From: Anaerolineae bacterium
Lineage (GTDB): Bacteria; Chloroflexota; Anaerolineae; JACIWP01
NCBI GenBank assembly: GCA_028275445.1
Contig: JAPWUQ010000003.1
Location: 1 to 43,660, forward strand
Direction of reading: 5' to 3'
DNA length: 43,660 bases
The notes below the pieces were generated by a model. It did not search any database. It was not told where the DNA came from and saw only the letters and a list, made by a program, of their open reading frames with translations. The stretch's first letter is position 1, and each line of letters starts with the position of its first letter. Below, piece after piece: positions 2,999-35,733 of the stretch. The position numbers were made by a program, and so were the translations under genes.

Positions 2999-4429
2999 TC
3001 AGCCCCCCTTGCCGGCCAGGCGCCGGCTGGCCCAGCGCTGGATGTCCTCCACAATACGGCCGGGCAGGGCCGGCTCATGGGCGGCCAGGATTTCCTCCAC
3101 CCGCGCATGGGCGCGCGCCAGCAGGGATTCCTCCGGCCGGCCGGTGCCGTGTTCACCCAGCCGGTCGAAGAGACTGCCGCTGAAGAACTCCGGCGAGCGG
3201 AGCATCTTCAGGGTAAGCGGGTCTTCCAGGAAATGGCCGCCGGGGCCGGCCCGCAGGATGGAATCGAAGCCCAGCATCTCCTCGGACGTGTCAATGCCCT
3301 CGGCCAGGCGCATGAGCAGGCCGGCGAGTTCCGCCTGAATGACGATCATCTCCGGGGACATGCCGACGGCGTTGTAACAGGAGCCCAGGCCGCCCATCAT
3401 ATTCTGCCCGAGGATGATGGAGGGGAACATCAGCAGAGCGCTTTCCATGCCGCACTGCATGTCGTGCCGGCCCACCAGGGAGCCCCCTGTCTCGCCGGTG
3501 ATGGGCAGGCCGTAGAACTTCCCCATCTGGATGAGAGCCGTTTTCCAGAGCATTTTGTCAGGGCTGTAGTAGATATCGTAGCCACTGCGCAGGTCGGTGA
3601 GGGAGGGGCCGGCGCCGTACAATATGGGCGCGCCCTCCCGCAGTAGCTGGCTGAGGGTGATGAGGAAGAGGTTTTCGGCGTTGGAGACCAGCAGGGTGCC
3701 GGCAAAGGTCAAGGGGGAGGTCGTGCCGGCCATCGGACAGACGACGGGGATGGTGGCCATGCCGCGCCGCACGCCCTCTTTCAGGATCCAGGCGTTGACA
3801 TCGGTGAGCATCAGCGGGCTGGTGACGGCGACGCCGAAGGAGAGCACCCGCCGGCGGCCCAGCGGCTGTCCATCGGCGTACATTTCGGCGACTTCCAGCC
3901 AATCGCGGGCCGACTCGACCGAGGCCGGCAGGGCCACGAGGTGTTTGGTGGTGTTGGTGGCGAAGGCCTCCAGGCTTTTGACATAGGCGGCGTCCGGCGG
4001 CAGGTCCGCGGGCGGCATATCCATGCGGTGAATATCGTCCACGATGGGGAGCGCGTCCCCCAGCCGGGTGTGGCGGACGATGTCATTCAGGACGGGCCGG
4101 CGCGGCTGGAGGGTCGCATAATCAATGATCCAGGGGTCAGTGACCAGGGAGCCGAAAACCCGATGCTCGCCCCCCACCAGGATGGGCCGGCCGTCCTGAT
4201 GGTGGATCTCGAACATGGGAGGCGCCAGCCGGCGCGCTTCTTCCACCAACTGGCGCGGGATGCGGACGATATTGCTGGCCTCGTCGACCCGCGCGCCGGC
4301 GGCGGCCAACACCTGCCGGCATTCGGCATCCAGGACCCGTACGCCGGCCTGCTCCAGCACATCCAGCGAGCGCTGATGGATGCGCTCAATCTCACCTTCA
4401 CTGAGCACGCGCAGTAAGAGCTTCCCCAT
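2999..4429 (-). CDS. Trimethylamine methyltransferase (MttB) family corrinoid methyltransferase, non-pyrrolysine
   Basis: LS..EIERIH..SL.VLE..GV N-terminus, SPL, PMAGTTSPLTFAGTL, YGLP, GPGGHFL; no in-frame TAG. Confidence 0.88.
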   Translation of the reverse strand: MGKLLLRVLSEGEIERIHQRSLDVLEQAGVRVLDAECRQVLAAAGARVDEASNIVRIPRQLVEEARRLAPPMFEIHHQDGRPILVGGEHRVFGSLVTDPWIIDYATLQPRRPVLNDIVRHTRLGDALPIVDDIHRMDMPPADLPPDAAYVKSLEAFATNTTKHLVALPASVESARDWLEVAEMYADGQPLGRRRVLSFGVAVTSPLMLTDVNAWILKEGVRRGMATIPVVCPMAGTTSPLTFAGTLLVSNAENLFLITLSQLLREGAPILYGAGPSLTDLRSGYDIYYSPDKMLWKTALIQMGKFYGLPITGETGGSLVGRHDMQCGMESALLMFPSIILGQNMMGGLGSCYNAVGMSPEMIVIQAELAGLLMRLAEGIDTSEEMLGFDSILRAGPGGHFLEDPLTLKMLRSPEFFSGSLFDRLGEHGTGRPEESLLARAHARVEEILAAHEPALPGRIVEDIQRWASRRLAGKGG

Positions 4430-4489: not shown

Positions 4490-4518
4490 AATATACCACG
4501 GCTTCGGCCGGCTGTCAA
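4490..4518 (-). promoter_or_regulatory. sigma70-type promoter of the MttB-family gene
   Basis: TTGACA-17 bp-TATATT with extended -10 TG. Confidence 0.7.
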
Positions 4519-4538
4519 GGCTTTCCTGCGAAGGGCGG

Positions 4539-4567
4539 TTGCACATTTGTGTATTTTCACTTATAAT
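4539..4567 (+). promoter_or_regulatory. sigma70-type promoter of the Fe-ADH/kinase/AOR cluster
   Basis: TTGCAC-17 bp-TATAAT. Confidence 0.72.
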
Positions 4568-4622
4568 GGGAGTATCAAACGGTGAGCCAAATTATGGCGG
4601 CCAGAATTGCGGCTATCATCCG

Positions 4623-5783
4623 ATGCAAAAGCTGGTGCGTTTCTCACTCCCCGAGGTTATCTTCGGCGACGGGGCTCGCTTTGGCGCTGTCCATGCACTG
4701 AAAGCGCTTGCGGTCGAACGTCCCCTCCTGGTCACCGATGCCGGCCTGATCGCCGCCGGCTGGGTGGAGGAACTCTCGCAGTATCTCCAGCATCACGGCG
4801 TCCCCGTGACCATCTGGAGCGCAGTCACTCCCAACCCGAAGGATCATGAGGTGATGGCCGGCGCTCGCCAGTACCTGCTCGAAGATTGCGATGGGCTGAT
4901 CGCCCTGGGGGGCGGCAGTGTCATTGACGCCGCCAAGGGCATCGGCCTGCTGGCCTCCCACGGCGGTGACCTGCACGATTACGTCGGCATTGGCCGAACG
5001 CGCGAGCCGCTCCCGCCGCTGATCGCCATCCCCACCACCGCCGGCAGTGGCGCCGATATCTCCCAGTACTGCGTCATCACCGACACGTCCGCACGCTGTA
5101 AGATGGTCATGGCGGACAAGAACCTGATCCCTGATATGTCCCTCATTGACCCGGAGACACTGCGCACCCTCTCGCCGGCCCAGGCCGCGCAGTCCGGCTT
5201 CGACGTCATCACCCACGCCGTCGAGGCATATCTCTCCATCGGGGCGAACGCGCTCACTGATTCACCGGCGCTGGAAGCGCTGGAGCTGGCGAATGCGCAC
5301 CTGGAACGCTTTGCCCAGGACCCGACCGATACAGAGGCCGGCCGGGGAATGGCCCTGGCCTGTCTGAAGGCCGCCGTGGCCTTCTCCAACGCCGGCCTGG
5401 GGCTGGCGCACGCGCTGGCCCACCAGATCGGCGGCGCCACCGACCTGCCGCATGGGTGCGTGATCATCCGGCTCCTCCCTTCCCTGCTCCGCCGCTATGC
5501 AGTGGCCGCGCCGGAGCGAACGGAACGGGTCGCGCGGGCCTTGGCTCCCTCCGACGCCGGCGACCGCGCGGTGGAGGGCGCGGTGCGCCGGCTGGAGGCC
5601 CTGCGCGCCGCCCTGGACTGCTTGACCCCAACCGATGTTCCCCAGCCGGAGCTGGAGACCCTGCGGCGCTGGGCAGAAGGCGCCCGGCATGACGTCTGCT
5701 TCCTTACCTCCCCCTGGAAACCGAACGCGGAGGAACTGGTGGCCCTTTTGCAGGAGTGTTGGAGCTGTGTCGGAGATCAATAA
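4623..5783 (+). CDS. Iron-containing alcohol dehydrogenase, ErcA-like
   Basis: F..PEVIFG.G, NPKDHEV, GGGSVIDAAKGI, PTTAGSGADISQ, and the metal-ligand motifs DVITH and AHALAHQIGG..DLPHG; start ATG 4623. Confidence 0.9.
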   Translation: MQKLVRFSLPEVIFGDGARFGAVHALKALAVERPLLVTDAGLIAAGWVEELSQYLQHHGVPVTIWSAVTPNPKDHEVMAGARQYLLEDCDGLIALGGGSVIDAAKGIGLLASHGGDLHDYVGIGRTREPLPPLIAIPTTAGSGADISQYCVITDTSARCKMVMADKNLIPDMSLIDPETLRTLSPAQAAQSGFDVITHAVEAYLSIGANALTDSPALEALELANAHLERFAQDPTDTEAGRGMALACLKAAVAFSNAGLGLAHALAHQIGGATDLPHGCVIIRLLPSLLRRYAVAAPERTERVARALAPSDAGDRAVEGAVRRLEALRAALDCLTPTDVPQPELETLRRWAEGARHDVCFLTSPWKPNAEELVALLQECWSCVGDQ

Positions 5784-8301
5784 GCCATTGAACCCTCCTC
5801 CCCAGGAACTGGAACAGGAACTGGACCGCCTCATCGGCCTCGGAACCATGAAGAGGCGGCATTACGCGGCGTTGAAGCGCGCCATGCGCGAGCTGGAGGA
5901 GCGGGCGGCGGCCCTGCGCCGGCGCAGTGAGGAGCTGGCCCTCATGGAACTGCGCTACCGCGCCCTCTTCGATAACATGCGCTCCCCCGTCGCGGTGTAC
6001 CAGGCGGTGAACGATGGGGAGGATTTCATCATCGTGGACTTCAACCGCGCCGCCGAAAAAACGGAGAAGGTCCAGCGGGAAAAGATCGTCGGCCACAGCG
6101 TGCGGGAGATATTTCCCGGCGTGATGGATTTCGGGCTGTTCGCCGTGTTCCAGCGGGTATACCGCACGGGCCGGCCGGAATCCCACGGCGCGGCGTTTTA
6201 TCAGGATGGGCGCATCGCCGGCTGGCGGGAGAACTACGTTTACAAGCTCCCCACCGGGGAAGTTGTGGCCGCCTACGAGGACCTGACCGAGCGCAAACAG
6301 GCGGAGCGGGCCTGGCGGGAAGCGGAACAGCGCCTGCGTCTGCTCATTGACCAGGTGCCCGTTACCATCTGGAGCGCCGATCGCGACCTGCGCGTCACCT
6401 ATCACACTGACCCCCTGTCCCCGGAGATGCGGCGCCTGGCGGCCGCCGGCCGCATCCTCGGCCGAACCCTCTATGAGATCGGCCAGGAGCTGTACGGCGA
6501 GAACTGGCCCACCATCGCCGCCGCCCGGCGCGCCCTGGCCGGCGAGACCGTACAGTTCGAGCATCGCACCTCGGACGGCCGCGTGCTGTTTTCCACCGCC
6601 TCGCCACTGCGGGACGAGGCCGGCCAGGTCATCGGCGTCGTCGGCGTCGCCATGGATATCACGGAACGCGTCGAAACCCAGCGCGCCCTGGTCGCCAGCG
6701 AGGAACGCCTGCGGCTCGTCGCCCGGCAGGCGCTGGTCAACATCTGGACGACCGACCGGGACCTGCGCATCACCTATCACTCTGGACCCATTACTGAGGA
6801 AATGCGCAGGATCGCCAACACGAAGGGGCTGGTGGGGCGCACGCTGTACGAGATCCATGCCGAGCTGTATGGGCAGGGGGAGCGTTCGCCGGGGCTGGAA
6901 GCCTCCCTGCGCGCCCTGGCCGGCGAAACAGTGCAGTATGAGCGCCACACGCCCGATGACCGCTATATCATCAACACGGTTTCCCCTCTGTACGATGACG
7001 AGGGCAACATCGCGGGGACCATTGGCATTGCCATTGACGTGACGGAGCGCCGCCGGCTGGAGCAACAGCTTCAACAGGCCCAGCGTCTGGAAGCGGTGGG
7101 TCAGCTCGCCGCCGGCGTCGCCCACGACTTCAACAACATCCTCACCGCCATCTTGGGCAATGCCAACCTGGCGCGCCTGACCGCGCCGGCATCCATCCAG
7201 CCCCTGCTGGCCGAGATCGAGCGCGGGGCCCGCCGCGCCGCCCAGCTCACCAAGCAACTGCTGGCCTTCGCCCAGCGTTCTGCCATCTATATGGCCCCGG
7301 TGGACGTGAACGCGGTGGTGCGCGAGGTAGTTTCCTTCCTCCGGGAGACCATTGACCGGCGCATTGACCTGGTGACGGAGCTGTCCGACGGCCTGCCGGC
7401 CGTTCAGGCCGATGCGACCCAGCTCCACCAGGTGTTGGTCAACCTGATCCTCAACGCGCGCGATGCCCTTTTGCCCCTGCTGGAGGAGGCCCACCCCAGG
7501 GAAACGGTCGGCCGGCCCTTGATCATCTCCGTCACGACCGATTTCGTCCATGTCGAACAGGTACCGCCCCACAGCCTGCTGAACGCCTCCCCAGGCGATT
7601 ACGTGCGCATCACCGTGCACGATACCGGCATCGGCATGGACAAAGGGACTCTGGAGCATATTTTCGAGCCCTTCTTCAGCACCAAGGGGCCAGGTAAGGG
7701 CACCGGCCTGGGGCTGGCCACCGTGTACGGCATCATCGCCCAGCATAAGGGATGGATCAACGTCTACAGCGAGCCGGGCACGGGCACGGCTTTCCGCATC
7801 TATCTGCCGGCCGCGCCGGCCACAGCCACCATACCAGCGCCGGCACCTGCCGCCACCGAAGAGCGGCCCACCGGCAGGGAGACCATCCTGGTGGTGGACG
7901 ATGAAGACTCCATCCTCTCCCTGCTCCAGCGCAGTCTGCCGGCCTACGGCTACCGCATCCTGACGGCCCAGGACGGCGCGGAGGCGCTGGAGATATACCG
8001 CCGGCAGGGGAACGAGATCGACCTGGTCCTGCTGGACCTCTCCATGCCGGGCATGTCCGGCCGAGAGGTCCTGGCTCAGCTCCTGGAGATCGCCCCGCAG
8101 GCACGCGTGCTCATCGCCAGCGGCTATGTCGCCGGCCATCAGGCGGTGCAAGGCCTGCTGGAGGCCGGCGCCCGCGGCTACGTCTCCAAACCCTATCAGC
8201 TTGACGAGCTTCTGCGCGCCATCCGCCAAACGCTGGATGCCGGCTCTTATCCCCCCAACGGGTCGCGGGCCTCGAACGCTTCGGCTGATGCCGGGGAGTG
8301 A
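5767..8301 (+). CDS. Cytoplasmic hybrid sensor histidine kinase (coiled coil, 3 PAS, HisKA, HATPase, REC), ErcS-like
   Basis: H-box GVAHDFNNIL, NLILNARDA, DTGIGM, FEPFFSTK, GTGLGL, receiver LVVDDE..LLDLSMPGMSG..SKPY; no TM helix; GTG 5767 after GGAG overlaps the ADH stop. Confidence 0.93.
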   Translation: MSEINKPLNPPPQELEQELDRLIGLGTMKRRHYAALKRAMRELEERAAALRRRSEELALMELRYRALFDNMRSPVAVYQAVNDGEDFIIVDFNRAAEKTEKVQREKIVGHSVREIFPGVMDFGLFAVFQRVYRTGRPESHGAAFYQDGRIAGWRENYVYKLPTGEVVAAYEDLTERKQAERAWREAEQRLRLLIDQVPVTIWSADRDLRVTYHTDPLSPEMRRLAAAGRILGRTLYEIGQELYGENWPTIAAARRALAGETVQFEHRTSDGRVLFSTASPLRDEAGQVIGVVGVAMDITERVETQRALVASEERLRLVARQALVNIWTTDRDLRITYHSGPITEEMRRIANTKGLVGRTLYEIHAELYGQGERSPGLEASLRALAGETVQYERHTPDDRYIINTVSPLYDDEGNIAGTIGIAIDVTERRRLEQQLQQAQRLEAVGQLAAGVAHDFNNILTAILGNANLARLTAPASIQPLLAEIERGARRAAQLTKQLLAFAQRSAIYMAPVDVNAVVREVVSFLRETIDRRIDLVTELSDGLPAVQADATQLHQVLVNLILNARDALLPLLEEAHPRETVGRPLIISVTTDFVHVEQVPPHSLLNASPGDYVRITVHDTGIGMDKGTLEHIFEPFFSTKGPGKGTGLGLATVYGIIAQHKGWINVYSEPGTGTAFRIYLPAAPATATIPAPAPAATEERPTGRETILVVDDEDSILSLLQRSLPAYGYRILTAQDGAEALEIYRRQGNEIDLVLLDLSMPGMSGREVLAQLLEIAPQARVLIASGYVAGHQAVQGLLEAGARGYVSKPYQLDELLRAIRQTLDAGSYPPNGSRASNASADAGE

Positions 8302-8308
8302 AACGCCA

Positions 8309-8542
8309 ATGGAAGAGACCGAAAAACTGCGCATCCTCATCCCTCACTGGATCGAGCACAACGCGGAACACGCGGCGGAGTTTGAGCGCTGGGCCCGCTC
8401 CGGCTGTCCCGGCTGTGAGCACATCCTGGAAGCCGCCCATTACATGGAAGCCGCGAACCAGGCCCTGCAGGCCGCGCTGGAGGAACTGGGCGGAGCGGCG
8501 GAAGGGCATGCCGGCCATTCCCATCCTCATCCACACGCCTGA
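8309..8542 (+). CDS. Small His-rich helical protein, putative metal-binding
   Basis: MEETEKLRILIPHWIEHNAEHAAEFERWA, CPGC, tail HAGHSHPHPH; GGGGAG RBS; fills the gap between kinase and AOR. Confidence 0.75.
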   Translation: MEETEKLRILIPHWIEHNAEHAAEFERWARSGCPGCEHILEAAHYMEAANQALQAALEELGGAAEGHAGHSHPHPHA

Positions 8543-8602
8543 GCCGGCCCATCCCTCCACAGGGGAAAGACCTGGCCCGATCCCGGGCATCGGAGGTGTA
8601 GC

Positions 8603-10483
8603 ATGCCTTACGGCTTTTTCGGCCGCGTCCTGCGCGTGAACCTGAGCGCCGGCACCACGGAGGTCCTGCCGTTGGACGAGGCCTGGTTCCGCGCCTACCT
8701 GGGCGGCTGGGGCCTGGTGGCCTACGTCCTGCTGACGGAAGTGCCGGCGGATTGCGATCCGCTCGGCCCGGAGAACAGGCTGATCATCGCTGCCGGCCTG
8801 ATGACCGGCGCGCCGCTGGGAGGCGCCGGCCGCAACATCGTCGGCGCCAAATCCCCCCTCACCGGCGGATTCGGCGCGTCCGAGGTCGGCGGCTTCTTCG
8901 GCGCCGAACTGCGCCGCGCCGGCTGGGACGGCATCATCGTCGAGGGCCAGGCGGAACGCCCGGTCTACCTGTGGATCCGCGACGACCAGGTGGAACTGCG
9001 CGATGCCGCCCATCTGTGGGGCCGGCCCACCGCCGAGGTGGAAGAGGCGCTTAAGGCGGAGCTGGGGGATGAGCGGGTGCGGGTATGCCAGATCGGGCCG
9101 GCCGGCGAGCGGCTCTGTCTGAACGCCTGCGTCTTGAACGATGTCCATCATGCCGCCGGCCGCTGCGGCCTGGGCGCGGTGATGGGGGCCAAAAAACTGC
9201 GCGCCGTCGCGGTGCGCGGCACCGGCACACTGCCGCTGGCCAACCCCGACGTGATCCGCAAATGGGCGCGCTGGCAGGCAGACCTGCTGGCCGCCGGCGA
9301 CCCGGTCATCAAACTGCGCTATGACTACGGCACGCCGGGCTTTCTGCCCATTTTGCAGGCCAGCGGCGGCCTCCCCACGCGCAATTTCCGCGAAGGCGTC
9401 TTCGAGGGCGCTGAGCGCATTGACGGCCAGCACATGGCCGCCACCATCCTCAAGGGCGGCGGCACCTGCTTCGCCTGCCCGGTGCGCTGTAAGCGCATTG
9501 TCGAGACCCATGACGAGTGGCAGGTTCAGCCGGCCTACGGCGGGCCGGAGTACGAGACCATCGCCGCTTTCGGCTCGCTGTGCGGGGTGGACGACCTGCC
9601 GGCCATCGCCAAGGCCAATGAGCTGTGCAACGCCTATGGGCTGGACACCATCAGCGCCGGCGCCACCATCGCCTGGGCCATGGAATGCTTCGAGCGCGGT
9701 CTCCTGACCACGGCCGACACGGACGGCATCCCGTTGAACTTCGGGAATGCCCGGGCCGTAGTGCAGATGCTGGAGAAGATCATCCAGCGGGAAGGGTTCG
9801 GCGACATCCTGGCGCAGGGCGCCTATCGCGCCGCACAAATCATTGGGCGCGGCACGGAGCAGTACGTCCTGCAGGTCAAGAAGCAGGAAGTGCCCATGCA
9901 CGACCCGCGCATCAAGTTCGCCCTGGACCTCGGCTATGCCACCTCCCCCACCGGCGCGGACCATGTGCACAACCTGCATGACAACGCCTTTCAGACGCCG
10001 GAGAATATCGCCGGCCTGCGCCCGCTGGGCATCCACCGCCCCCTGCGTTTCGACGATCTCTCGCCGGCCAAGGTGCGCATGGCCCGCCGCTGGATCACCT
10101 ACCGCACCTTCCAGAACTGCCTGGGCATGTGCATCTTCATGAGCTACTCCATCGAGGCTCAGCAGGAAATTGTGCGTGCGCTGACCGGCTGGGATTTCTC
10201 GATCTTTGAAATGCTCGAGGTCGGAGAACGGGTGCTCGCCATGGCGAGGGTTTTTAACGCCCGCTGCGGCCTGCGCGCCGCGGATGACGCGCCGCCGGCC
10301 CGCTTCTTCGAACCGCTGGGGAACGGGCCGCTCGCCGGCTCATTCATCCCGCCGGACGCCATGCGCGCCGCCCTACAGACCTACTACCAGATGATGGGCT
10401 GGGACCCGCATACCGGCGCCCCGCTCCCCTGGAAGCTCCACGAGCTGGACCTGGGCTGGCTGCCCGAGGCCGGCGCCCGATGA
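8603..10483 (+). CDS. aor: Aldehyde:ferredoxin oxidoreductase (tungsten/molybdenum AOR family)
   Basis: KSPLTGG, GPAGE, AAGRCGLGAVMGAKKL, CFACPVRC, GPEYET, GLDTIS, HDPR, GMC. Confidence 0.93.
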   Translation: MPYGFFGRVLRVNLSAGTTEVLPLDEAWFRAYLGGWGLVAYVLLTEVPADCDPLGPENRLIIAAGLMTGAPLGGAGRNIVGAKSPLTGGFGASEVGGFFGAELRRAGWDGIIVEGQAERPVYLWIRDDQVELRDAAHLWGRPTAEVEEALKAELGDERVRVCQIGPAGERLCLNACVLNDVHHAAGRCGLGAVMGAKKLRAVAVRGTGTLPLANPDVIRKWARWQADLLAAGDPVIKLRYDYGTPGFLPILQASGGLPTRNFREGVFEGAERIDGQHMAATILKGGGTCFACPVRCKRIVETHDEWQVQPAYGGPEYETIAAFGSLCGVDDLPAIAKANELCNAYGLDTISAGATIAWAMECFERGLLTTADTDGIPLNFGNARAVVQMLEKIIQREGFGDILAQGAYRAAQIIGRGTEQYVLQVKKQEVPMHDPRIKFALDLGYATSPTGADHVHNLHDNAFQTPENIAGLRPLGIHRPLRFDDLSPAKVRMARRWITYRTFQNCLGMCIFMSYSIEAQQEIVRALTGWDFSIFEMLEVGERVLAMARVFNARCGLRAADDAPPARFFEPLGNGPLAGSFIPPDAMRAALQTYYQMMGWDPHTGAPLPWKLHELDLGWLPEAGAR

Positions 10484-11316
10484 GGACCGTCATGACCAAG
10501 CCGCCCGCACCGTACGACGAGATCCGCACCATTATCTATCAGGATGAGCTGTGGACCCTGCGGGAGTATCACCCGGCGCTGGCCGACTTTCTGCAGGCGC
10601 GGGACCGTCTGCTGGTACTGCGGCACGGCCGGCCGCCCTATGCCGTTCTCCTGGGCGTCCCGCACCACGCCGAGGTGCGGGAGGATTACATCTGCGAGCG
10701 CCGGCTGGATGCCGAAGGCCGGCCGGCGCCGCGCGACGCCGACAAAAACGCCGCCTCCTACGCGCTGGTGGCGTTCACCGCCCTGCGCGATCGCGGAGTG
10801 CCCTGCAAGCTGGTCATCATGGCCCATCCCACCACCCATGACCCCAATAAGGACCTCGCAAGCCCGTACAGCAGGGAGTTGTTCGCAGAGCCGGCCCGCT
10901 TTCTGCTGGAATGCCACGGGAGCGGGCCGCACCGCCGGCTGGCGCTGGAGCTGAGCGCCGGCCATAATCATCTGGCCGACGCGCTCCGCTTCGCCCAACT
11001 GCTGGATGCCGCGCTGGGCCGGCGCTACACCTGGGGCGTCCAGAAAGCACCCGGCAGCCGCGATGCCTGGATTTTCCATGGGGATGGGCACGAGGAAGAG
11101 GAAGCCCTGGAGCTATCGGCCCTGCAGACGGTGACCTTGATAGAGGCGGAGCGCAGAGGCATGCCGGCGCTCCATCTGGAGGCCAAGCCGGCCTTCTGCA
11201 AGCCGGCGGACGATGTCAACGCCGTATCGCCCGACGGCCTCCTGCTGGGCCGCGCCCTGGCCCAGGCCCTCCTGCATTACCTGGGATGGAGGGACCGCGC
11301 ACAAGGCCCAGGATGA
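10480..11316 (+). CDS. Hypothetical protein, possible N-formylglutamate amidohydrolase/Zn-exopeptidase-like fold
   Basis: ATGA overlap with aor; motifs LLGVPHHA, HDPNKD, FLLECHG, ALHLEA are spaced like FGase-family motifs. Confidence 0.6.
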   Translation: MRTVMTKPPAPYDEIRTIIYQDELWTLREYHPALADFLQARDRLLVLRHGRPPYAVLLGVPHHAEVREDYICERRLDAEGRPAPRDADKNAASYALVAFTALRDRGVPCKLVIMAHPTTHDPNKDLASPYSRELFAEPARFLLECHGSGPHRRLALELSAGHNHLADALRFAQLLDAALGRRYTWGVQKAPGSRDAWIFHGDGHEEEEALELSALQTVTLIEAERRGMPALHLEAKPAFCKPADDVNAVSPDGLLLGRALAQALLHYLGWRDRAQGPG

Positions 11317-11776
11317 TCCCGCGGGAGCGGGCGCGCCGGCGCGCCACCAGCACCGCCCACAGCGTCACCAGCACCTCGAACAGCCACACGCCGACCGAAT
11401 AGAGCTGAAAGCTGGTCCAGATGGGATGCCGGCGGATGTCCACTTTCGTCAGCGGCCACAGCGCATATCCTCCGCTGGTATCCTCCCCGACCATTTGATC
11501 CACCACCAGGTCGCTGAGGACATGCACCAGATAGCCGGCCGCCCAGCCCACCACGGCCTGCCGCCGGCGCGTCAGCAGTGCCACCGCCGCCGTGGTGAGC
11601 GCGCCGGTCAGCAGGGAATGCGCCGGCACCCTGCCGCTGGGGGACCAGCGCAGGATATACCGCCCGGTCTTGTCCACCAGGTCGGGGAACACGGCGGCCA
11701 GCATGGTGGTGCGCTGGTCGGTATGCAGATAATGCGAGGCGAGGTACCCCGCGCTCACGTGTCCTGGGAATATCAT
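11216..11776 (-). CDS. Membrane-bound metal-dependent hydrolase (YdjM/YbcI-like)
   Basis: GH near the N-terminus, FPDLVDK, AHSL, HVLSD, LWP and hydrophobic segments; start ATG 11776. Confidence 0.8.
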   Translation of the reverse strand: MIFPGHVSAGYLASHYLHTDQRTTMLAAVFPDLVDKTGRYILRWSPSGRVPAHSLLTGALTTAAVALLTRRRQAVVGWAAGYLVHVLSDLVVDQMVGEDTSGGYALWPLTKVDIRRHPIWTSFQLYSVGVWLFEVLVTLWAVLVARRRARSRGIILGLVRGPSIPGNAGGPGPGRGPAGGRRAIRR

Positions 11777-11818
11777 GGCGCCATTATGGCATAGAACCTG
11801 AGCGCCGGCAAACGGCTC

Positions 11819-11863
11819 AAAAAAAAACAAGGTGACAGCCATCTGGGGATGACTGTCACCTTG
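11819..11863 (-). terminator. REP-like palindrome acting as intrinsic terminator of the SPFH gene
   Basis: CAAGGTGACAG-CCATC-TGGG-GATGA-CTGTCACCTTG with a poly-A run on its left (U tract on minus strand). Confidence 0.75.
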
Positions 11864-13102: not shown

Positions 13103-13768
13103 CTAGCGTGGACGTTCGATCCAACCGTTCTCGAGGGCCAGGCGGATCAGCTCCTGCCGGCCGGAGACCCCGAGCTTATCCTGCATATTGCTGAAGTGGG
13201 CGCGCACCGAACCCTCAGCGATGTGCAACTGCCGGCCGATCTCTTGATTGGTATAGCCGCGGGCCGCCCATGTCAGCACCTCAAGCTGACGCTCCGTGAG
13301 CGGACACTCCTTTTTCTCGGGGTGAATCAGGAAGCCGCTGAACCAATCGCCAAAGTCTTCGCGCGGCCCGAGCACCATCAGGCCGTGATGGACAAGCTGA
13401 ATGGCCATGATGATATCGCGCATGCTGGGGGAACGGCCCAGCAGTCCGTCGGCGCCGGCCTGGAGGGCCTGGCCGGCGACGGGCGCGCCAATGTACGTGG
13501 TGATAGCCATCAGCTTGGTCGGAAGGCCCCGTTCCTTCACCCGGCGGATCAGCTCCACCCCGTCGTACTCGCTGTGCTCGAGCACCAGGTCCACCAGCGC
13601 CACGTCGGGAAGCTCCCGGAGGATAAGCTCCAGGCCCTCCGGGCCGTTGATGGCATGCCCTACAAATTCGATCTCCGGCGCCGCCTCTAAGGCCGCCTGA
13701 TAGGTCTCGGCGATAGACCGGTGATCCTCCACCAGCACCACACGGATTTTACTGCGTTCGCGGGCCAT
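13103..13768 (-). CDS. NarL/FixJ (LuxR HTH) family response regulator
   Basis: VVLVEDH, PDVALVDL receiver; LTERQLEVL..AARGYTNQEIG..L.IAEGSVRAH....DKLGV HTH. Confidence 0.95.
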   Translation of the reverse strand: MARERSKIRVVLVEDHRSIAETYQAALEAAPEIEFVGHAINGPEGLELILRELPDVALVDLVLEHSEYDGVELIRRVKERGLPTKLMAITTYIGAPVAGQALQAGADGLLGRSPSMRDIIMAIQLVHHGLMVLGPREDFGDWFSGFLIHPEKKECPLTERQLEVLTWAARGYTNQEIGRQLHIAEGSVRAHFSNMQDKLGVSGRQELIRLALENGWIERPR

Positions 13769-13790
13769 CGCTCTCTCCTCCTGGTCTGAC

Positions 13791-16616
13791 TTACGAAGCC
13801 AGGTGTTCATCCCGGATCTGCGCGGGGATACGCACCACGATGCAGGTGCCCCGGCCATCGGCTCCGGCCTTAAAGTCCGTCTCTCCACCCAGACAGGCCG
13901 CCTGCCGCCAGATGTTCTTCAGCCCCCAATGTCCTTCCTGCGACCAGATATCCTCAGGCAGGCCTTTGCCGGCGTCCTCGATCTCCAGGCGGATCATCTC
14001 GCCGTCCCGATGACAGCGCAGTACAGCCCGCCTGGCGCCCGAATGCCGGCAGGCGTTGCTCAGCCCCTCGCTGGCGATGCCGACCAGGATGCGCTGGGTG
14101 AGGTTGCGGAGCTCCGGCAGGGCCGGGTCCACGTCCAGTTCCACCTCAAACTCATACAGATCGCGGAAGAAGCGCCGCAGGCGCTGCAGTTCGCTCACCA
14201 GATTGGTCCGTGCGGAGCGGTCGCTGACCAGGTCGCGCATCATGCGCGCCATGCGCGTCTGCAGTTCCTGAGCCAGCCGGATGACGCGATCGAAGCGCTC
14301 TTCCAGTTCGAGCAGGCCGGCCCGCGCCACCTCGTCGGCCATCAGCTCGAGGCGTTTCGCCAGTTCGTCCAGAGTGTGGCTGAACTGATCATGGAGCAGG
14401 ATAGACTGCTGTTCCCGGAAGCTCGAAAGGGCGGCGTGCGCACGCTCCTCCATGTTCTCATGCAGGCTGAAGCCCAGCGCGGCCAGGTTGGCGAACAATC
14501 TCATGGCGCGCTGTTCGTTAGGGCCCAGCGTCCGGCGCTGACGAAAGTTGAGGCAGATGACGCCGTACGGGTGATTGCCCACATACATGGGGAGGCCGGC
14601 GAAGGAGCGGATCCCCTGCCGCATCGAGAAGCTCACCACATGCTCATCTATCCCGCCTCTGGCGCGCATCAACAGGGGCTCGTCGTGGACATTGGGCACG
14701 AACCAGCCCTGCTTCTCCTCCAAAACGCGCTGGAGGAGAGGGGCATCCGATGGCATATTGCGGAGCGTCTTATTTTTGTTGTGGAATTTGCCGGCCAGGT
14801 TGAGGAAATGAAATTGGCGGGTCCCCGGGTTGTAGCCATAAATCAACACCAGGTCCGCCCCAAACAGGCGCTGGGCATACTCGGCGATGTTCTCGGAGAG
14901 CATGTCCGGGTCGGGTTCCATGCCGGCGGCCAGCAGTGCCGCCGTCATCTCGTTCAACAGCTCCACCCGCTGGACCTCGGCCTGCCACTGCTCCTGCATC
15001 TGCAGGGTGCGCAGTACCGCGGCACAAGCCTGATAAATCGGCACCAGGCTGTCCAGCTCCTCCATAGTGGGCACGTTCCCTGAGCCGGGCGAACTGCTCC
15101 CGAAGATCACCAGCCCGACAGGCTCCCGCTCCGTCCCGCCGTGCACCTTCACCCAGAGCGGCACAAAGGCCTGGATGACGGTATAATCCCGCTCATGGGG
15201 ATGGGTTGTCCTGTGCTGCACCGCGCCCCACACGCGGGAATCGAAAGTGGGGTGCCAGCCCTCATATATGCGGCGTTGCTGGGAGCGGAGTGCCTCGAGA
15301 TACGCATTGTCTGCATCGCTGGAGAAGCGGATGTCCTTCAGCCACTTGGGGGATGGGACACATTTTCGGAGTACGAGAGTATCGCTCTGTCGGTCATACA
15401 CCCAGACCTGGGCAAACTCGTACCCCAATTTGACCGTGAAGGTATCCAGGATGGCGTCAAAGACCTCCTCCTGGCCGGCGGAAAACTCCTGAAGATGCCG
15501 GGCCATGCCAAAGATGCGCGCTTGCGCCGCGCGCTCTTCCTGCCGCGCCTGGGCGCCGGCCAGCAGTTCCGCAAAGGCCTGGCTCTGGCGCGCCATTTGG
15601 TCCAGTTCCTCGGGGTAAATCACCGGCAGGCGGCGGTACTCCAGGCTGATGGCGGCCGGCTCCTGGCCGGCGGCAAACGGAACGCACAGCTCCATTTTCA
15701 GCGCCGACCAGCTCAGGCTGGGTTGGTCGGCAAAGATCACCTCCTGCGCTCCCTGCAGGCTGACACGCCGGCGCTCCGGGATATAGCACGCCGGCGTATG
15801 ATTCTGCCAGGCAATGGGCGGTGGGGACTGCCCCGATTCACACCGCACCGCCTCCGCCACCCCGCTCTGGGACACGCGTATCCCGGTCCAAACCTCTTCA
15901 CCTTCCCCTTTGGACCACAGCACGGCGAAATCCGCCTGGAGCAAATCGCAGAACAGCCGGCCTACATTGACCGGCCATTCCCGGTCCCGCACACCGGAGC
16001 CGGCGAGACACCGGATGTGCTCTTCCACATCGGTGCGCAGTCTTTCCAGGGTCGCGCTGGAGATGCGCTCGCGGGAAACCACGTGATACAGTACCCCGCC
16101 GATAAACCCCAGCCACAGCCAGTGCACCAGCCACGCCGGCACCATTCCTATCAGGGTATTCCGTTCGATGAGCAATAACGCCAGCCCGACACCCAGCCAG
16201 TTGCCGGCCAGCGCCAGCAAATTGACCTGCGCGGCGATTGCCATCGGCACGAGGAACAGCAACCACAGCAGAGGGTTAACGGACAGGCCCCGGGTGACCA
16301 GGAGCGAAAGGGTGACCACAGCCAGCACCGCCGCGGCGTATATCCCCTGCGTTCGCGGGGCATAAAAGCGGTGCTCAAAGGGGGAGAACGGGAAAAGGGG
16401 GATAATCAGATACGGGGCGAGAAACAGCGCGATCAGCATCGGCAGCCAGAGCGGCCCGCTCGCCAGGCCCATCAGCGCCATCAAGACGCCCCCCATCAGC
16501 GCCATCACCCACCGCCAGCTCATGGTGGTACTGCGCAAGCGGGACTTGACCAGCGCGCCCGGTGTCGGGAACACGCGCAGCCGGTGCCACAGCCGTCTGC
16601 TTTCACCCCGGTTCAT
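13791..16616 (-). CDS. Membrane-anchored multi-GAF sensor histidine kinase (HisKA_3 type)
   Basis: N-terminal multi-TM region, GAF-like segments (..SFAGLPM..G...GVICLN), H-box LLHDQFSH, EGLSNACRHSGA, IEDAGKG, GHWGL, GT.I; start uncertain (16616-16643). Confidence 0.88.
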   Translation of the reverse strand: MNRGESRRLWHRLRVFPTPGALVKSRLRSTTMSWRWVMALMGGVLMALMGLASGPLWLPMLIALFLAPYLIIPLFPFSPFEHRFYAPRTQGIYAAAVLAVVTLSLLVTRGLSVNPLLWLLFLVPMAIAAQVNLLALAGNWLGVGLALLLIERNTLIGMVPAWLVHWLWLGFIGGVLYHVVSRERISSATLERLRTDVEEHIRCLAGSGVRDREWPVNVGRLFCDLLQADFAVLWSKGEGEEVWTGIRVSQSGVAEAVRCESGQSPPPIAWQNHTPACYIPERRRVSLQGAQEVIFADQPSLSWSALKMELCVPFAAGQEPAAISLEYRRLPVIYPEELDQMARQSQAFAELLAGAQARQEERAAQARIFGMARHLQEFSAGQEEVFDAILDTFTVKLGYEFAQVWVYDRQSDTLVLRKCVPSPKWLKDIRFSSDADNAYLEALRSQQRRIYEGWHPTFDSRVWGAVQHRTTHPHERDYTVIQAFVPLWVKVHGGTEREPVGLVIFGSSSPGSGNVPTMEELDSLVPIYQACAAVLRTLQMQEQWQAEVQRVELLNEMTAALLAAGMEPDPDMLSENIAEYAQRLFGADLVLIYGYNPGTRQFHFLNLAGKFHNKNKTLRNMPSDAPLLQRVLEEKQGWFVPNVHDEPLLMRARGGIDEHVVSFSMRQGIRSFAGLPMYVGNHPYGVICLNFRQRRTLGPNEQRAMRLFANLAALGFSLHENMEERAHAALSSFREQQSILLHDQFSHTLDELAKRLELMADEVARAGLLELEERFDRVIRLAQELQTRMARMMRDLVSDRSARTNLVSELQRLRRFFRDLYEFEVELDVDPALPELRNLTQRILVGIASEGLSNACRHSGARRAVLRCHRDGEMIRLEIEDAGKGLPEDIWSQEGHWGLKNIWRQAACLGGETDFKAGADGRGTCIVVRIPAQIRDEHLAS

Positions 16617-33005: not shown

Positions 33006-33881
33006 CTACATGAACTCCCGCTTGAGGCGCTCCAGCTCCGCCGTATCCCGATGCACGCCCAGCTCGACGAGAGAATGTTCCTGGATGGCCGGCAGATGAT
33101 CCTCGTAGGTCGGACGCTCCACCTGGTACAGGATGCCGATGGGGATACGGTCCCCCCACTCCTGCGCCTTCTCCAGCGCCGCGGCAAAGTCCGTCGGGTC
33201 ATAGCCGCCCGGCTGTTCCTCGACCTTGTACACCCGCTCCGAGTACCAGTCGTACGTATTGACGCGGTTGAAGGTCACGCAGGGTTGCAACACGTCGATC
33301 AGGGCGTAGCCGCGGTGCATGAGCGCCTTGCCGATGATGTCCGCCAGGTAGCGCGGGTCCTTGGCAAAGCCGCGCGCGACGAAGGTCGCGCCGGCGATGA
33401 GGGCCAGCGCCAGCGGCCGCACCGGCTGTTCGATCGCGCCGGCCGGCGGCGGAGAGGTCTTGGTCACCGTGCCCGTCTCGCTGGTCGGCGAATACTGCCC
33501 CTTGGTCAGACCGTACACCTGGTTGTTCTGCACCACAGAGGTGATGTTGATGTTGCGGCGCGCCGCATGCAGGAGATGGCTCAACCCCATGCCGTAGGTA
33601 TTCCCATCTCCTGAAACGGTCATCACATACAGCTTGTGATTGGCCAGTTTGGCGCCGGTGGCGATGGGGATATCGCGGCCGTGCAGGGTGTGCAGGCCGT
33701 TGACCCACATGTACTGCGGCAGTTTGCTCCCACAGCCGATGCCGGTCACGATGAGGAGCTGATGCGGCTCGATGTTGTAATTCACCATGGCGAGCTTGAC
33801 CGCGTTCAGCACGCCGTGATCGCCGCACCCCGGGCACCAGGTCGGGCGATCGCGCCCCTGTAAATCTTTCATGCTAGGCAT
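33006..33881 (-). CDS. korB: 2-oxoacid:ferredoxin oxidoreductase beta subunit
   Basis: WCPGCGD, GIGC, LHGR, GDG...G, NNQVYGLTKGQYSPT, QPCVTFN. Confidence 0.95.
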   Translation of the reverse strand: MPSMKDLQGRDRPTWCPGCGDHGVLNAVKLAMVNYNIEPHQLLIVTGIGCGSKLPQYMWVNGLHTLHGRDIPIATGAKLANHKLYVMTVSGDGNTYGMGLSHLLHAARRNINITSVVQNNQVYGLTKGQYSPTSETGTVTKTSPPPAGAIEQPVRPLALALIAGATFVARGFAKDPRYLADIIGKALMHRGYALIDVLQPCVTFNRVNTYDWYSERVYKVEEQPGGYDPTDFAAALEKAQEWGDRIPIGILYQVERPTYEDHLPAIQEHSLVELGVHRDTAELERLKREFM

Positions 33882-35637
33882 GGAGCACCTCCCTGACGCC
33901 GCGCACGATGTACTCCGGAGAGAAGGGCCGGCCGTCGTATTTGCTGATAAAGTGTTCCAGGCGGATGCCGGTTTCCTGTCGGATCAACCGCGCCATCTGT
34001 CCCAAGGCGTTGTTCTCCACCGCAATGGTCACGCGAGCCTCCCCCAGCGCCTGCGCCACGGCCTCGGCCGGGAACGGCCACACGTCAGTAATGTGCAGGT
34101 ATTGGGCGGTCGGGCGCTCCGCGTTGAGGATGCGCAGGGCCTCCAGCGCCGGCATCACCGTGGAACCCCATCCCACCAGCATCACCGGCGCTTCCGCCGG
34201 CCCGTAGCGCTTCGGCGGGCGCATGCTCTGACGCGCGGTCTCCAGCTTCCGCAGTCGCTTGGCATTCAGCGCCACCCGGTCCTCGATCTCCTCGGCAATG
34301 CGGCCCTGGTAGTCGTGCTCGTTGCCCTCGCCCACATACACCGCCTTGGGATGGCCGGGCACGGCGCGCGGGGAAACCCCGTCCTCGGTGATCGCATAGC
34401 GGTAGTACTCCCCTTCCAGCGCATCCAGCTCCGCCGGCGAGAGCAGTTTGCCGCGCTCCACCTTCACCGCGGAAAGGTCCAGCGCCTCTGGCTCCAGGGT
34501 GCGGGAGGAAGTCGCTAGGAAATGATCCCCCAGCACAATGACGGGAGTCTGATAGGTCTCCGCCAGGTTGAAGGAGCGCCAGCCGGCCTCGAACGCCTCT
34601 TCATGCGTGCCGGGCGCCAGCACCACCCGCAGGAACTCGCCCTGCGACGCCCACAGGCTGAAAAGCAGGTCCCCCTGCTCCTGGCGGGTCGGCAGGCCGG
34701 TGGATGGGCCGGGGCGCTGCGCGTTGTAAATGACCACCGGCGTCTCGGACATGCCGGCAAAGCCCAGCGCCTCCACCATCAGGGAAAAGCCGCCGCCCGA
34801 GGTCGGGACCAGCGCACGCGCCCCCACATGGCCGGCGCCCACCGCCATGCAGATGGCCGCGATCTCGTCCTCGGTGTGCTTGACCACCAGGCCGTATTGA
34901 TTGGCATGGCCGGCCAGCCACTCCAGCACCGGCGAACCCGGCGTCATAGGGTAGCCGGCGGCGAAGCGGCATCCGCCGGCCACCGCGCCAAAGGCGAACG
35001 CCTCGTTGCCGTTCAACAGCATCCTGGACGGCGCGCCCGGGATCGGCTCGATCGTGTGGTCAAAGCCGGCGGCGTAATGCTCCAGGGCATAGCGGTAGGC
35101 GGCATCCGCCACCTTCAGGTTGGCGCTGACCATGGCTTCGCCCCGCTTGCCGAAGTTGACGCGGATGATCTCCTCGATGTACGAGAAGGGGAATTGGGTG
35201 ACGCCGGCGGCCGCGGCGGTGGCGGCGGTATTCATCATCACCGCCGCGCCGCCGATCTCCTCAGCGATTTTGCGGAGCGGCACGGGGAAGCGCTGGATAC
35301 CCCTGGCCTGCACCGCTTCCCAGATGGCGTCCTCCACCGGCATGGCTTCGTCGTAGAGGATGGCGCCGCCGGCGGGAATCTGGGGATAATGCCGGCGCAC
35401 CGCCTCCTCGGTCATGGCCAGCAGTACGTGCACGGTCTCCCGATGGGAGGTGACGGGCTCCGCGCTCACCCGGATCTGGGCGAAGTTATGCCCGCCGCGG
35501 ATGCGGGAGCGGTAATCGCGCAGGTCGAAGATGTGGAGGCCGGCGTGCGCAATCGCTTTGGCAAAGCCGGTGGCGCTGGACTCGATGCCCTGGCCGGCCT
35601 CGCCGCCCAGCAGAAAGGTCAGGTCATTTTTCGGCAT
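33874..35637 (-). CDS. korA: 2-oxoacid:ferredoxin oxidoreductase alpha subunit (gamma-alpha fusion)
   Basis: GGEAGQGI, SRIRGGHN, GNEA, YPMTP, EDEIAA, TSGGGFSLM.E, QRPGPSTGLPT. Confidence 0.95.
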   Translation of the reverse strand: MPKNDLTFLLGGEAGQGIESSATGFAKAIAHAGLHIFDLRDYRSRIRGGHNFAQIRVSAEPVTSHRETVHVLLAMTEEAVRRHYPQIPAGGAILYDEAMPVEDAIWEAVQARGIQRFPVPLRKIAEEIGGAAVMMNTAATAAAAGVTQFPFSYIEEIIRVNFGKRGEAMVSANLKVADAAYRYALEHYAAGFDHTIEPIPGAPSRMLLNGNEAFAFGAVAGGCRFAAGYPMTPGSPVLEWLAGHANQYGLVVKHTEDEIAAICMAVGAGHVGARALVPTSGGGFSLMVEALGFAGMSETPVVIYNAQRPGPSTGLPTRQEQGDLLFSLWASQGEFLRVVLAPGTHEEAFEAGWRSFNLAETYQTPVIVLGDHFLATSSRTLEPEALDLSAVKVERGKLLSPAELDALEGEYYRYAITEDGVSPRAVPGHPKAVYVGEGNEHDYQGRIAEEIEDRVALNAKRLRKLETARQSMRPPKRYGPAEAPVMLVGWGSTVMPALEALRILNAERPTAQYLHITDVWPFPAEAVAQALGEARVTIAVENNALGQMARLIRQETGIRLEHFISKYDGRPFSPEYIVRGVREVLHA

Positions 35638-35733
35638 GCGGAACCTCCATCCATAATAGTTCGCGGCGATATAACCTAATTATCGCCGATGCCGCCGGCG
35701 CTTCCGTAACATATCTTACCTTCTGCACCCGGT

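Follow-up and report, generated by a model that had tools for sequence, protein, structure and literature searches.

A probable remote relative of the ErcA/ErcS alcohol sensor pair, encoded together with an aldehyde:ferredoxin oxidoreductase in an Anaerolineae bacterium

Organization of the locus

The DNA analyzed here is a stretch of 43,660 nucleotides from an Anaerolineae bacterium of the phylum Chloroflexota (contig C153, GenBank JAPWUQ010000003.1, of the 318-contig, 2.9-Mb assembly GCA_028275445.1; completeness 92.6%, G+C content about 66%), and this whole stretch is called the window below. It contains five genes on the + strand that encode, in this order, an iron-dependent alcohol dehydrogenase (Fe-ADH), a hybrid histidine kinase, a protein of 77 amino acids, an aldehyde:ferredoxin oxidoreductase (AOR) and a protein of 278 amino acids, the last referred to by its open reading frame (ORF) as ORF278. 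An earlier reading, made from the letters only, had proposed that the dehydrogenase and the kinase form a pair like ErcA and ErcS coupled to the AOR. According to two reports, ErcA and ErcS belong to the ethanol-oxidation network of Pseudomonas aeruginosa and YiaY and YiaZ are their Pseudomonas putida homologues (PMC12997753, PMC5812489); the corresponding loci are PA1991/PA1992 and PP_2682/PP_2683. The results described here indicate that the dehydrogenase and kinase of the window are probably a remote member of this type of two-protein alcohol sensor.

The five genes were confirmed at the positions proposed, as a tight run behind a promoter-like site. The dehydrogenase and kinase genes overlap by 17 nt, the kinase gene is separated by 7 nt from the 77-amino-acid ORF and this by 60 nt from the AOR gene, which in turn overlaps ORF278 by 4 nt (ATGA). 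The site scan gave no terminator-like site in the kinase-to-AOR interval. Sigma-70-like sites were more frequent between positions 4300 and 11900 than in shuffled sequences (6 found, 0.7 expected). The gene order is not an assembly artefact, since Logan contigs from other studies' runs span both the dehydrogenase/kinase junction (X2, X3, X5) and the stretch from the kinase over the small ORF to the AOR gene (X3, X4). DNA nearly identical to positions 4500-11400, sharing at least half of the sampled words, is present in 13 runs, namely ten of hot springs metagenome, two of sediment and one of a coded organism, and no RNA run was among them.

Table 1. Features of the gene cluster and of its surroundings in the window.
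Feature	Position	Strand	Evidence and remarks
Non-Pyl MttB-family methyltransferase	2999-4429	-	divergent from the cluster
Sigma-70-like promoter site, TGCACA-16-TATAAT	4540-4567	+	10/12 consensus matches, consensus match only; ahead of the dehydrogenase gene
Fe-dependent ADH-like protein, 386 aa, ErcA/YiaY clade	4623-5783	+	Pfam Fe-ADH 160.8 bits, ADH_Fe_C 130.7 bits
N-terminal dehydrogenase signature RFSLPE ([RK]F..PE), residues 6-11	4638-4655	+
Soluble hybrid histidine kinase, 844 aa	5767-8301	+	GTG start; three PAS, HisKA, HATPase_c, REC
N-terminal kinase motif of about 40 residues, residues 11-51	5797-5919	+	alignment A1, profile, regular expression
Three PAS domains, residues about 63-427	5953-7047	+	Pfam PAS_8, PAS_4, PAS_9
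HisKA and HATPase_c core, residues 444-683	7096-7815	+	most like CckA/PRK13557 models
REC domain, residues 707-820	7885-8226	+
77-aa ORF, CPGC and His-rich tail	8309-8542	+	ends GHAGHSHPHPHA; no Pfam match; DUF8180-like, lead only
AOR family protein, 626 aa	8603-10483	+	AFOR_N 257.2 bits, AFOR_C 415.4 bits, both over gathering score
ORF278, N-formylglutamate-amidohydrolase-like (lead only), 278 aa	10480-11316	+	no Pfam match; atlas feature score 0.93
YdjM	11216-11842	-	convergent with ORF278
LuxR-type response regulator (REC and GerE)	13106-13918	-	2.6 kb beyond the cluster
GAF kinase, 957 aa	13794-16664	-	beside the LuxR-type regulator
2-oxoacid:ferredoxin oxidoreductase genes (alpha/gamma and beta subunits)	33009-35679	-

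The kinase starts most likely at the GTG listed in Table 1, because the orthologue from the same genus has an equal overlap of 17 nt and a Tyr where the window kinase has its internal Met, and because the database cluster is also of 844 residues. Hence the peptide quoted before as the beginning of the protein begins at residue 20 and not at residue 1. The kinase had also been called soluble, and no membrane-like segment was found in it (the Kyte-Doolittle mean over 19 residues nowhere exceeds 1.22). Its close homologues in the protein database carry Anaerolineae names of metagenome-assembled genomes.

The N-terminal motif of the kinase

The motif of the window kinase reads LIGLGTMKRRHYAALKRAMRELE / QELDRLIGLGTMKRRHYAALKRAMRELE / QELEQELDRLIGLGTMKRRHYAALKRAMRELEERAAAL and lies ahead of the PAS domains. 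The sequence-only reading had named a segment of this kind for ErcS-type kinases, and true ErcS proteins do contain it. Pseudomonas genomes were reached by a 16S primer scan, and ErcA was over the NCBIfam cut-off (601.6-609.2 bits) in four of the five searched; each of these four has, immediately after ercA and overlapping the end of that gene, a gene for a hybrid kinase, ErcS, whose start is LLGLGSHSARKSHYPELLARLEELE / MARPSERQQEALAGLLGLGSHSARKSHYPELLARLEELE / MARPSERQQEALAGLLGLGSHSARKSHYPELLARLEELEAERNRY or a close variant. The window kinase keeps the invariant L, G and Y and has the same HY-to-ELE spacing as ErcS, the pseudomonads alone having two extra residues between GLG and HY. The motif can be written as L-x2-L-(I/L)-G-(L/V/I)-x5-7-(H/Y)-Y-x2-L-x5-(E/D)-L-E within the first 60 residues or so, a pattern that the window kinase contains. 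A PAS survey places the PAS domain of ErcS at residues 41-157 (PMC8694187), therefore behind the motif.

A loose regular expression found the segment once in the 5.8 million six-frame residues of the window's genome, and a profile built from 148 segments that excluded the window's own family had the window kinase as its sole match among 43,877 six-frame ORFs (E 2.1e-6, 28.5 bits), with no other match up to E 10. A metagenome scan with the whole kinase recovered no orthologue but 80 loci that encode generic PAS hybrid kinases of 29-45% identity; these kinases, the most similar to that of the window in the core, served as negative control and none of the 80 loci held the motif. The GAF kinase encoded beside the LuxR-type regulator (Table 1) is also devoid of it, by regular expression and by profile. 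A word-based protein search with residues 1-100 returned 14 proteins among 400 candidates, of which four, the own cluster included, span the first 45 residues; ErcS was missed by this search because too few exact words are in common.

The association of the motif with dehydrogenase genes was followed in three phyla. Among 401 Chloroflexota genomes 44 had a match to the ErcA model at E <= 1e-100, none over the cut-off, and 29 of these loci were viewed. A motif kinase lay directly downstream in all six loci whose dehydrogenase scored 485-503 bits, and in none of the 23 with 350-400 bits. The six kinases begin with ...EHLLESLIGVSASRRTYYSEYRE... or ...LLAVLTGINASKLGHYGELKKKIRELE..., and they were missed by a regular expression that demanded G-x-G and revealed by reading the downstream ORFs. 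A profile (A1; 41 positions, ten segments) was then run on the same number of genomes from each phylum. In Chloroflexota it gave seven strong matches (65-74 bits), all behind dehydrogenase genes, five being training rows and two near-copies, and, after a gap in score, four further matches near 19 bits without a dehydrogenase gene. In Pseudomonadota 16 genomes matched, 15 of them outside the training set, and in the 16 a Fe-ADH gene, with a product 53-100% identical to ErcA, ends just upstream. Four actinomycetotal genomes matched, again all with an upstream Fe-ADH gene. The last two phyla together give 20 motif genomes out of 20 with the upstream gene, 19 outside the training set.

The profile was also compared with 1.84 billion representative proteins, which gave at least 218 clusters (50% identity) at E <= 0.001. 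In 145 of the 149 listed clusters other than that of the window the motif falls within the first 60 residues, and two of the four remaining ones are ORFs that run from the C terminus of a Fe-ADH into the motif. Wherever the context of a motif cluster was readable, a gene for an ErcA-clade dehydrogenase stood just upstream. No Pfam model spans the motif, and NCBIfam covers it only in the full-length kinase model MadS, by the first 42 positions. The literature searched gave no description of the kinase-side motif, although supplementary figures S4 and S5 of PMC12551699 may show part of it. On sequence grounds the segment marks dehydrogenase-coupled transducers of three phyla or more, which contradicts the published restriction to pseudomonads.

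The protein bodies joined to the motif are varied. ErcS has the order PAS-HisKA-HATPase-REC, the protein of P. taiwanensis HisKA-HATPase-REC with no PAS, and those of Chloroflexota GAF-HisKA_3-HATPase followed by a LuxR-type regulator (MadS/MadR-like), and PAS-GGDEF-EAL is also seen. Over 72 motif proteins of at least 350 residues, HATPase_c was present in 57, HisKA in 45, HisKA_3 in 8 and HWE/HisKA_2 in 3; REC was counted in 27, PAS in about 40, GAF in 13, Hpt in 1, GGDEF with EAL in 2, HD in 2 and SpoIIE in 1. Such variation of the body, while the place behind an ErcA-type dehydrogenase gene holds, is as expected if the segment serves the pairing. In the P. taiwanensis ErcS orthologue (locus L140, 4334-5668, - strand) the motif is followed by a coiled stretch and then by HisKA, so that PAS is dispensable for joining the motif to a kinase. 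PAS-GGDEF-EAL proteins with the motif are encoded behind an ErcA-clade dehydrogenase gene at locus L300 (genome G461; 6093-7880, - strand) and also at locus L195; a pair of this kind suggests alcohol sensing that feeds cyclic di-GMP turnover.

In an AF2 model covering the first 95 residues of the kinase (mean pLDDT 77.6), a helix at 12-23 is followed by a break at the invariant G24 and by a second, long helix at 25-82. A predicted complex of the dehydrogenase with kinase residues 1-75, from unpaired alignments and run without controls, scored 0.27 and 0.21, the mark being 0.32; these scores count neither for nor against binding.

The dehydrogenase

The best NCBIfam model for the window dehydrogenase is ErcA (NF041833, an equivalog) with 365.6 bits, followed by lactaldehyde reductase with 256.4. 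Only four close relatives were found in the protein database, at 98, 80, 74 and 74% identity, and the identity to paired Chloroflexota dehydrogenases is 41-46%. A tree was built by a quick IQ-TREE search from 71 rows, 27 paired with a motif protein, 14 of unknown context and 30 unpaired, the unpaired rows including DhaT and three other dehydrogenase paralogues of this genome. All paired and unknown-context members fell into one clade (99% SH-aLRT) that excluded the 30 unpaired ones. The window protein lies within this clade, which contains ErcA, away from the DhaT branch and from the other unpaired Fe-ADHs.

The clade is also recognizable by the N-terminal signature [RK]F..PE, present in the 27 paired and the 14 unknown-context members and in none of the 30 unpaired dehydrogenases. 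In the window protein it reads RFSLPE, and its location corresponds to the region of YiaY placed against YiaZ in the P. putida study (PMC12551699). The cofactor and metal residues are kept (D39, GGGS96-99, D194, H198, H263, H277), and H277 corresponds to H281 of YiaY, the histidine of DLPHG.

A second ErcA-like dehydrogenase of the genome is encoded on contig C177 (locus L010, 3-1118, - strand; 497.6 bits), and it stands inside the ErcA clade as an unknown-context row. The contig ends 11 nt after the dehydrogenase match, within the gene, and carries a divergent gene for a 717-residue membrane kinase upstream. No second kinase motif was found in the assembly of this genome, in which C177 ends before any downstream gene. 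A tblastn search of plasmids with the C177 dehydrogenase yielded DhaT and generic Fe-ADHs, 49-51% identical to it, but no ErcA, and none of the 120 relatives listed by a protein search was named ErcA.

Conservation of the link to AOR

The sequence-only reading had linked the pair to aor, and the neighbourhood survey found this link in all three species of the genus. In both other species the cluster MttB-dehydrogenase-kinase-small ORF-AOR-ORF278-YdjM-SPFH is present, split over two contigs in each, and the AOR proteins are 89 and 96% identical to that of the window. The 77-amino-acid ORF, which has an atlas feature score of 0.94 to DUF8180 clusters, and ORF278 are both kept in the two sister species and have no paralogues in the genome. 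Among 40 genomes of other relatives only three had any dehydrogenase match at E <= 1e-60, and no orthologue was found outside the genus. In another Chloroflexota family an AOR gene, with a product 35% identical, adjoins a dehydrogenase-kinase-LuxR regulator triad on the opposite strand; a second extended locus was without AOR. The genes beside such pairs vary with the lineage and include pqq and aldehyde dehydrogenase genes, an SDR gene and genes of GGDEF proteins.

Surroundings of the cluster

The cluster is flanked upstream by the divergent MttB-family gene and downstream by the convergent YdjM and SPFH genes. As called, the 3' ends of ORF278 and YdjM share about 100 nt, and one stop or start may be miscalled. 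The methyltransferase fits anaerobic life, as do the 2-oxoacid:ferredoxin oxidoreductase genes farther along the window. The statement made before, that no DNA-binding regulator is in the cluster, is true of the operon, but a LuxR-type response regulator is encoded nearby (Table 1) and the genome has three Hpt genes, all on other contigs, namely C48, C169 and C54. This regulator is merely 26% identical to the MadR-like regulator of locus L299.

Discussion

The window pair shares the features that appear to define how ErcA/ErcS works. The gene order, the homology of both hallmark segments and the strict adjacency of the kinase motif to ErcA-clade dehydrogenase genes in three phyla are direct observations; binding between the two proteins of the window, their ligand, the regulator that receives the signal and AOR as controlled target are what we infer from them. 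Three of the four findings named beforehand as able to refute an ErcA/ErcS-like pair did not do so, since the dehydrogenase groups away from catabolic ones, the kinase N terminus is homologous to that of ErcS and the linkage to aor is conserved.

The comparison leans on the work in P. putida. Menasalvas et al. (2025) report that yiaY and yiaZ overlap and that both are needed, in cis, and that the two proteins cosediment; they describe an AlphaFold3 model in which the first 14 residues of YiaY lie against the N terminus of YiaZ, and they state that deletion of these residues, or the change H281A, abolishes signalling (PMC12551699). Both N-terminal segments that this work points to are conserved across phyla in the present data. 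The same study states that close homologues exist only in 20 pseudomonad genomes and that no other interaction of a kinase with an alcohol dehydrogenase has been reported (PMC12551699).

By analogy, the dehydrogenase-like protein, with its intact NAD and metal sites, would most likely bind or turn over a short alcohol or aldehyde. It would most likely sit on the kinase through the N termini of both proteins, RFSLPE on one side and the helix-kink-helix LIGLG-x5-HY-x8-ELE on the other, and this docking would set the activity of the kinase. From the kinase's own REC domain the phosphoryl group would pass to an Hpt protein and then to a response regulator, both products of genes outside the operon. 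The same transcript would yield AOR together with the small His-rich and the amidohydrolase-like proteins, and in this way an anaerobic Anaerolineae of hot springs would link the sensing of alcohol or aldehyde to the ferredoxin-linked oxidation of aldehydes or reduction of acids.

A number of observations weigh against the view that the two proteins are an ErcA/ErcS-type sensor governing AOR. The dehydrogenase remains far under the cut-off of the ErcA model (550 bits), is only 37% identical to ErcA, and the stem that carries it in the quick tree is very long, 1.89 changes per site, so that long-branch effects could alter its placement. The kinase core falls outside the NahK/ErcS family, with 76.1 bits against a cut-off of 400 on the C-terminal domain model NF041832, on which the ErcS of P. 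paraeruginosa scores 409.6. The motif of the window kinase, with the 28.5 bits given above, is a weak member that lacks the common wording S-x-RKSYYPEL, and the three PAS domains could sense by themselves. Inside the operon there is no response regulator or Hpt gene. All catalytic residues of the dehydrogenase are retained, and the AOR link is limited to one genus and to one unrelated AOR beside a pair in another family. AOR C-terminal domain matches number 15 in this 2.9-Mb genome, which is unusually many for its size. Since the pair stays below the cut-offs of two family models, it is a remote variant of ErcA/ErcS and no orthologue. What stands of the proposed likeness is the motif, the clade and the 17-nt overlap, and what does not is membership of the kinase core and of the dehydrogenase in the model families.

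The role of AOR is the part most exposed to another explanation. The two proteins could be a true dehydrogenase-kinase co-sensor and AOR a passenger, the signal going to distant genes through Hpt and a regulator, as ErcS acts on exa/ped genes. An operon without regulator, Hpt genes confined to other contigs, partners that change between lineages (pqq, aldehyde dehydrogenase, SDR, GGDEF) and the abundance of AOR genes in the genome all agree with it. However, the AOR gene follows the kinase gene on the same strand with only the 77-residue ORF and no terminator-like site between them, the order and an AOR of 89-96% identity hold in all three species of the genus, and an unrelated AOR gene adjoins a dehydrogenase-kinase-regulator triad in another Chloroflexota family. 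We place this explanation on the unlikely side. Control of AOR by the pair is suggested by operon membership in three species of one genus and by the one AOR of the other family.

It is still less probable that the cluster is a plain catabolic operon, in which dehydrogenase and AOR would form an alcohol-aldehyde-acid route in either direction and the kinase would be an ordinary PAS sensor with a mere dimerization or signalling helix at its N terminus, since the motif stays by ErcA-clade dehydrogenase genes while its partners change (HisKA, HisKA_3, HWE, GGDEF-EAL, HD, SpoIIE), as selection on pairing would give, and the upstream dehydrogenase gene is found in every one of the 20 motif genomes. 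The best solved relatives of the window dehydrogenase are nevertheless working enzymes, the NAD-dependent methanol dehydrogenase 8zrl (274.7 bits) and the 1,3-propanediol oxidoreductase 3bfj. On contig C33 of the same genome (locus L004) an AOR gene comes directly after the gene of a Fe-ADH outside the ErcA clade, without an intervening kinase; this plain pair, together with the retained catalytic residues, leaves room for a purely metabolic role. The Fe-ADH gene next to mnoS/mnoR in Mycobacterium smegmatis, msmeg_6239, has been regarded as encoding a regulated 1,3-propanediol dehydrogenase (PMC11303327). Signalling in P. putida, on the other hand, needs the dehydrogenase and its catalytic histidine (PMC12551699), hence the roles of enzyme and sensor are compatible.

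Should the pair indeed govern the AOR, it would be the first case in which a sensor of the ErcA/ErcS type is connected with anaerobic, ferredoxin-linked aldehyde metabolism. ErcA/ErcS (YiaY/YiaZ) is the only studied co-sensor of alcohol dehydrogenase and kinase, reported in 2025 as a non-canonical complex (PMC12551699). We consider the wider result on the motif more interesting than the window pair itself, and it gives a sequence rule for spotting alcohol or aldehyde sensors in genomes. A broader proposal, held here with slightly more doubt than belief, is that the segment could be a portable docking module for ErcA-type sensors, able to turn any output protein into an alcohol or aldehyde sensor, ancient enough to occur in at least three phyla, and here governing a tungsten or molybdenum AOR. 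Fe-ADH genes that stand beside kinases and are annotated as propanediol or alcohol dehydrogenases may then encode sensors. The mycobacterial dehydrogenase next to mnoS may be one, by an analogy that sets it beside the window by description only. Such pairs are candidate biosensor parts with other specificities, those of thermophiles included, and they offer a testable idea of how the state of an enzyme could pass to a kinase.

Comparison with known systems

Apart from ErcA/ErcS, the kinases MnoS and MadS come closest in arrangement. The M. smegmatis locus of MnoS/MnoR and msmeg_6239 resembles that of the window in having a Fe-ADH gene beside a soluble kinase. The motif-bearing Chloroflexota kinases score 218-341 bits on the model of MadS (NF047786; its partner MadR, NF047785), whose first 42 positions span the motif, and the motif kinases of Actinomycetota likewise follow Fe-ADH genes. 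MnoS and MadS differ in being GAF-HisKA_3 kinases with an adjoining LuxR-type regulator, whereas the window has a PAS hybrid kinase and no regulator in the operon. The N terminus of the window kinase had no match to the MadS model up to E 10, and among the 158 families listed for the full-length protein MadS did not rank in the best 25. Literature on the name MadS turned up only the unrelated MadRS system of Enterococcus and plant MADS.

Two further systems share single traits. NosP and NahK (named in NCBIfam NF041831 and in PMC12997753) are a pair of the accessory-sensor and hybrid-kinase type. As in the window, the gene of a separate cofactor-binding sensor immediately precedes that of a soluble hybrid kinase, and the sensor sets the activity of this kinase, as the dehydrogenase would do in the window, but the sensor of the window would have an enzyme fold (Fe-ADH) in place of a haem protein, and the coupling element would be a short N-terminal segment of the kinase. 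Anaerobes use an AOR-ADH route for the reduction of carboxylic acids or the oxidation of alcohols. The encoding together of a ferredoxin-dependent AOR and an alcohol dehydrogenase is common to this route and to the window, which differs from it by the ErcS-motif kinase in between and by a dehydrogenase of the regulatory ErcA clade.

The differences from ErcA/ErcS itself lie mostly in what surrounds the two hallmark segments. The window belongs to Chloroflexota and its dehydrogenase is below the ErcA cut-off; in its kinase the PAS domains number three and not one, the linker is longer by 14 residues, the core is like CckA/PRK13557 and not like NahK/ErcS, and the motif is without the two-residue insert of the pseudomonads. 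AOR and two small ORFs adjoin the pair, in place of pqq/exa/ped genes. In both systems, however, a Fe-ADH-like gene overlaps a downstream gene for a soluble hybrid kinase, by 17 nt in the window and in the pair of P. paraeruginosa alike, and both have in common the N-terminal kinase motif, the dehydrogenase clade, the signature [RK]F..PE and the histidine of DLPHG.

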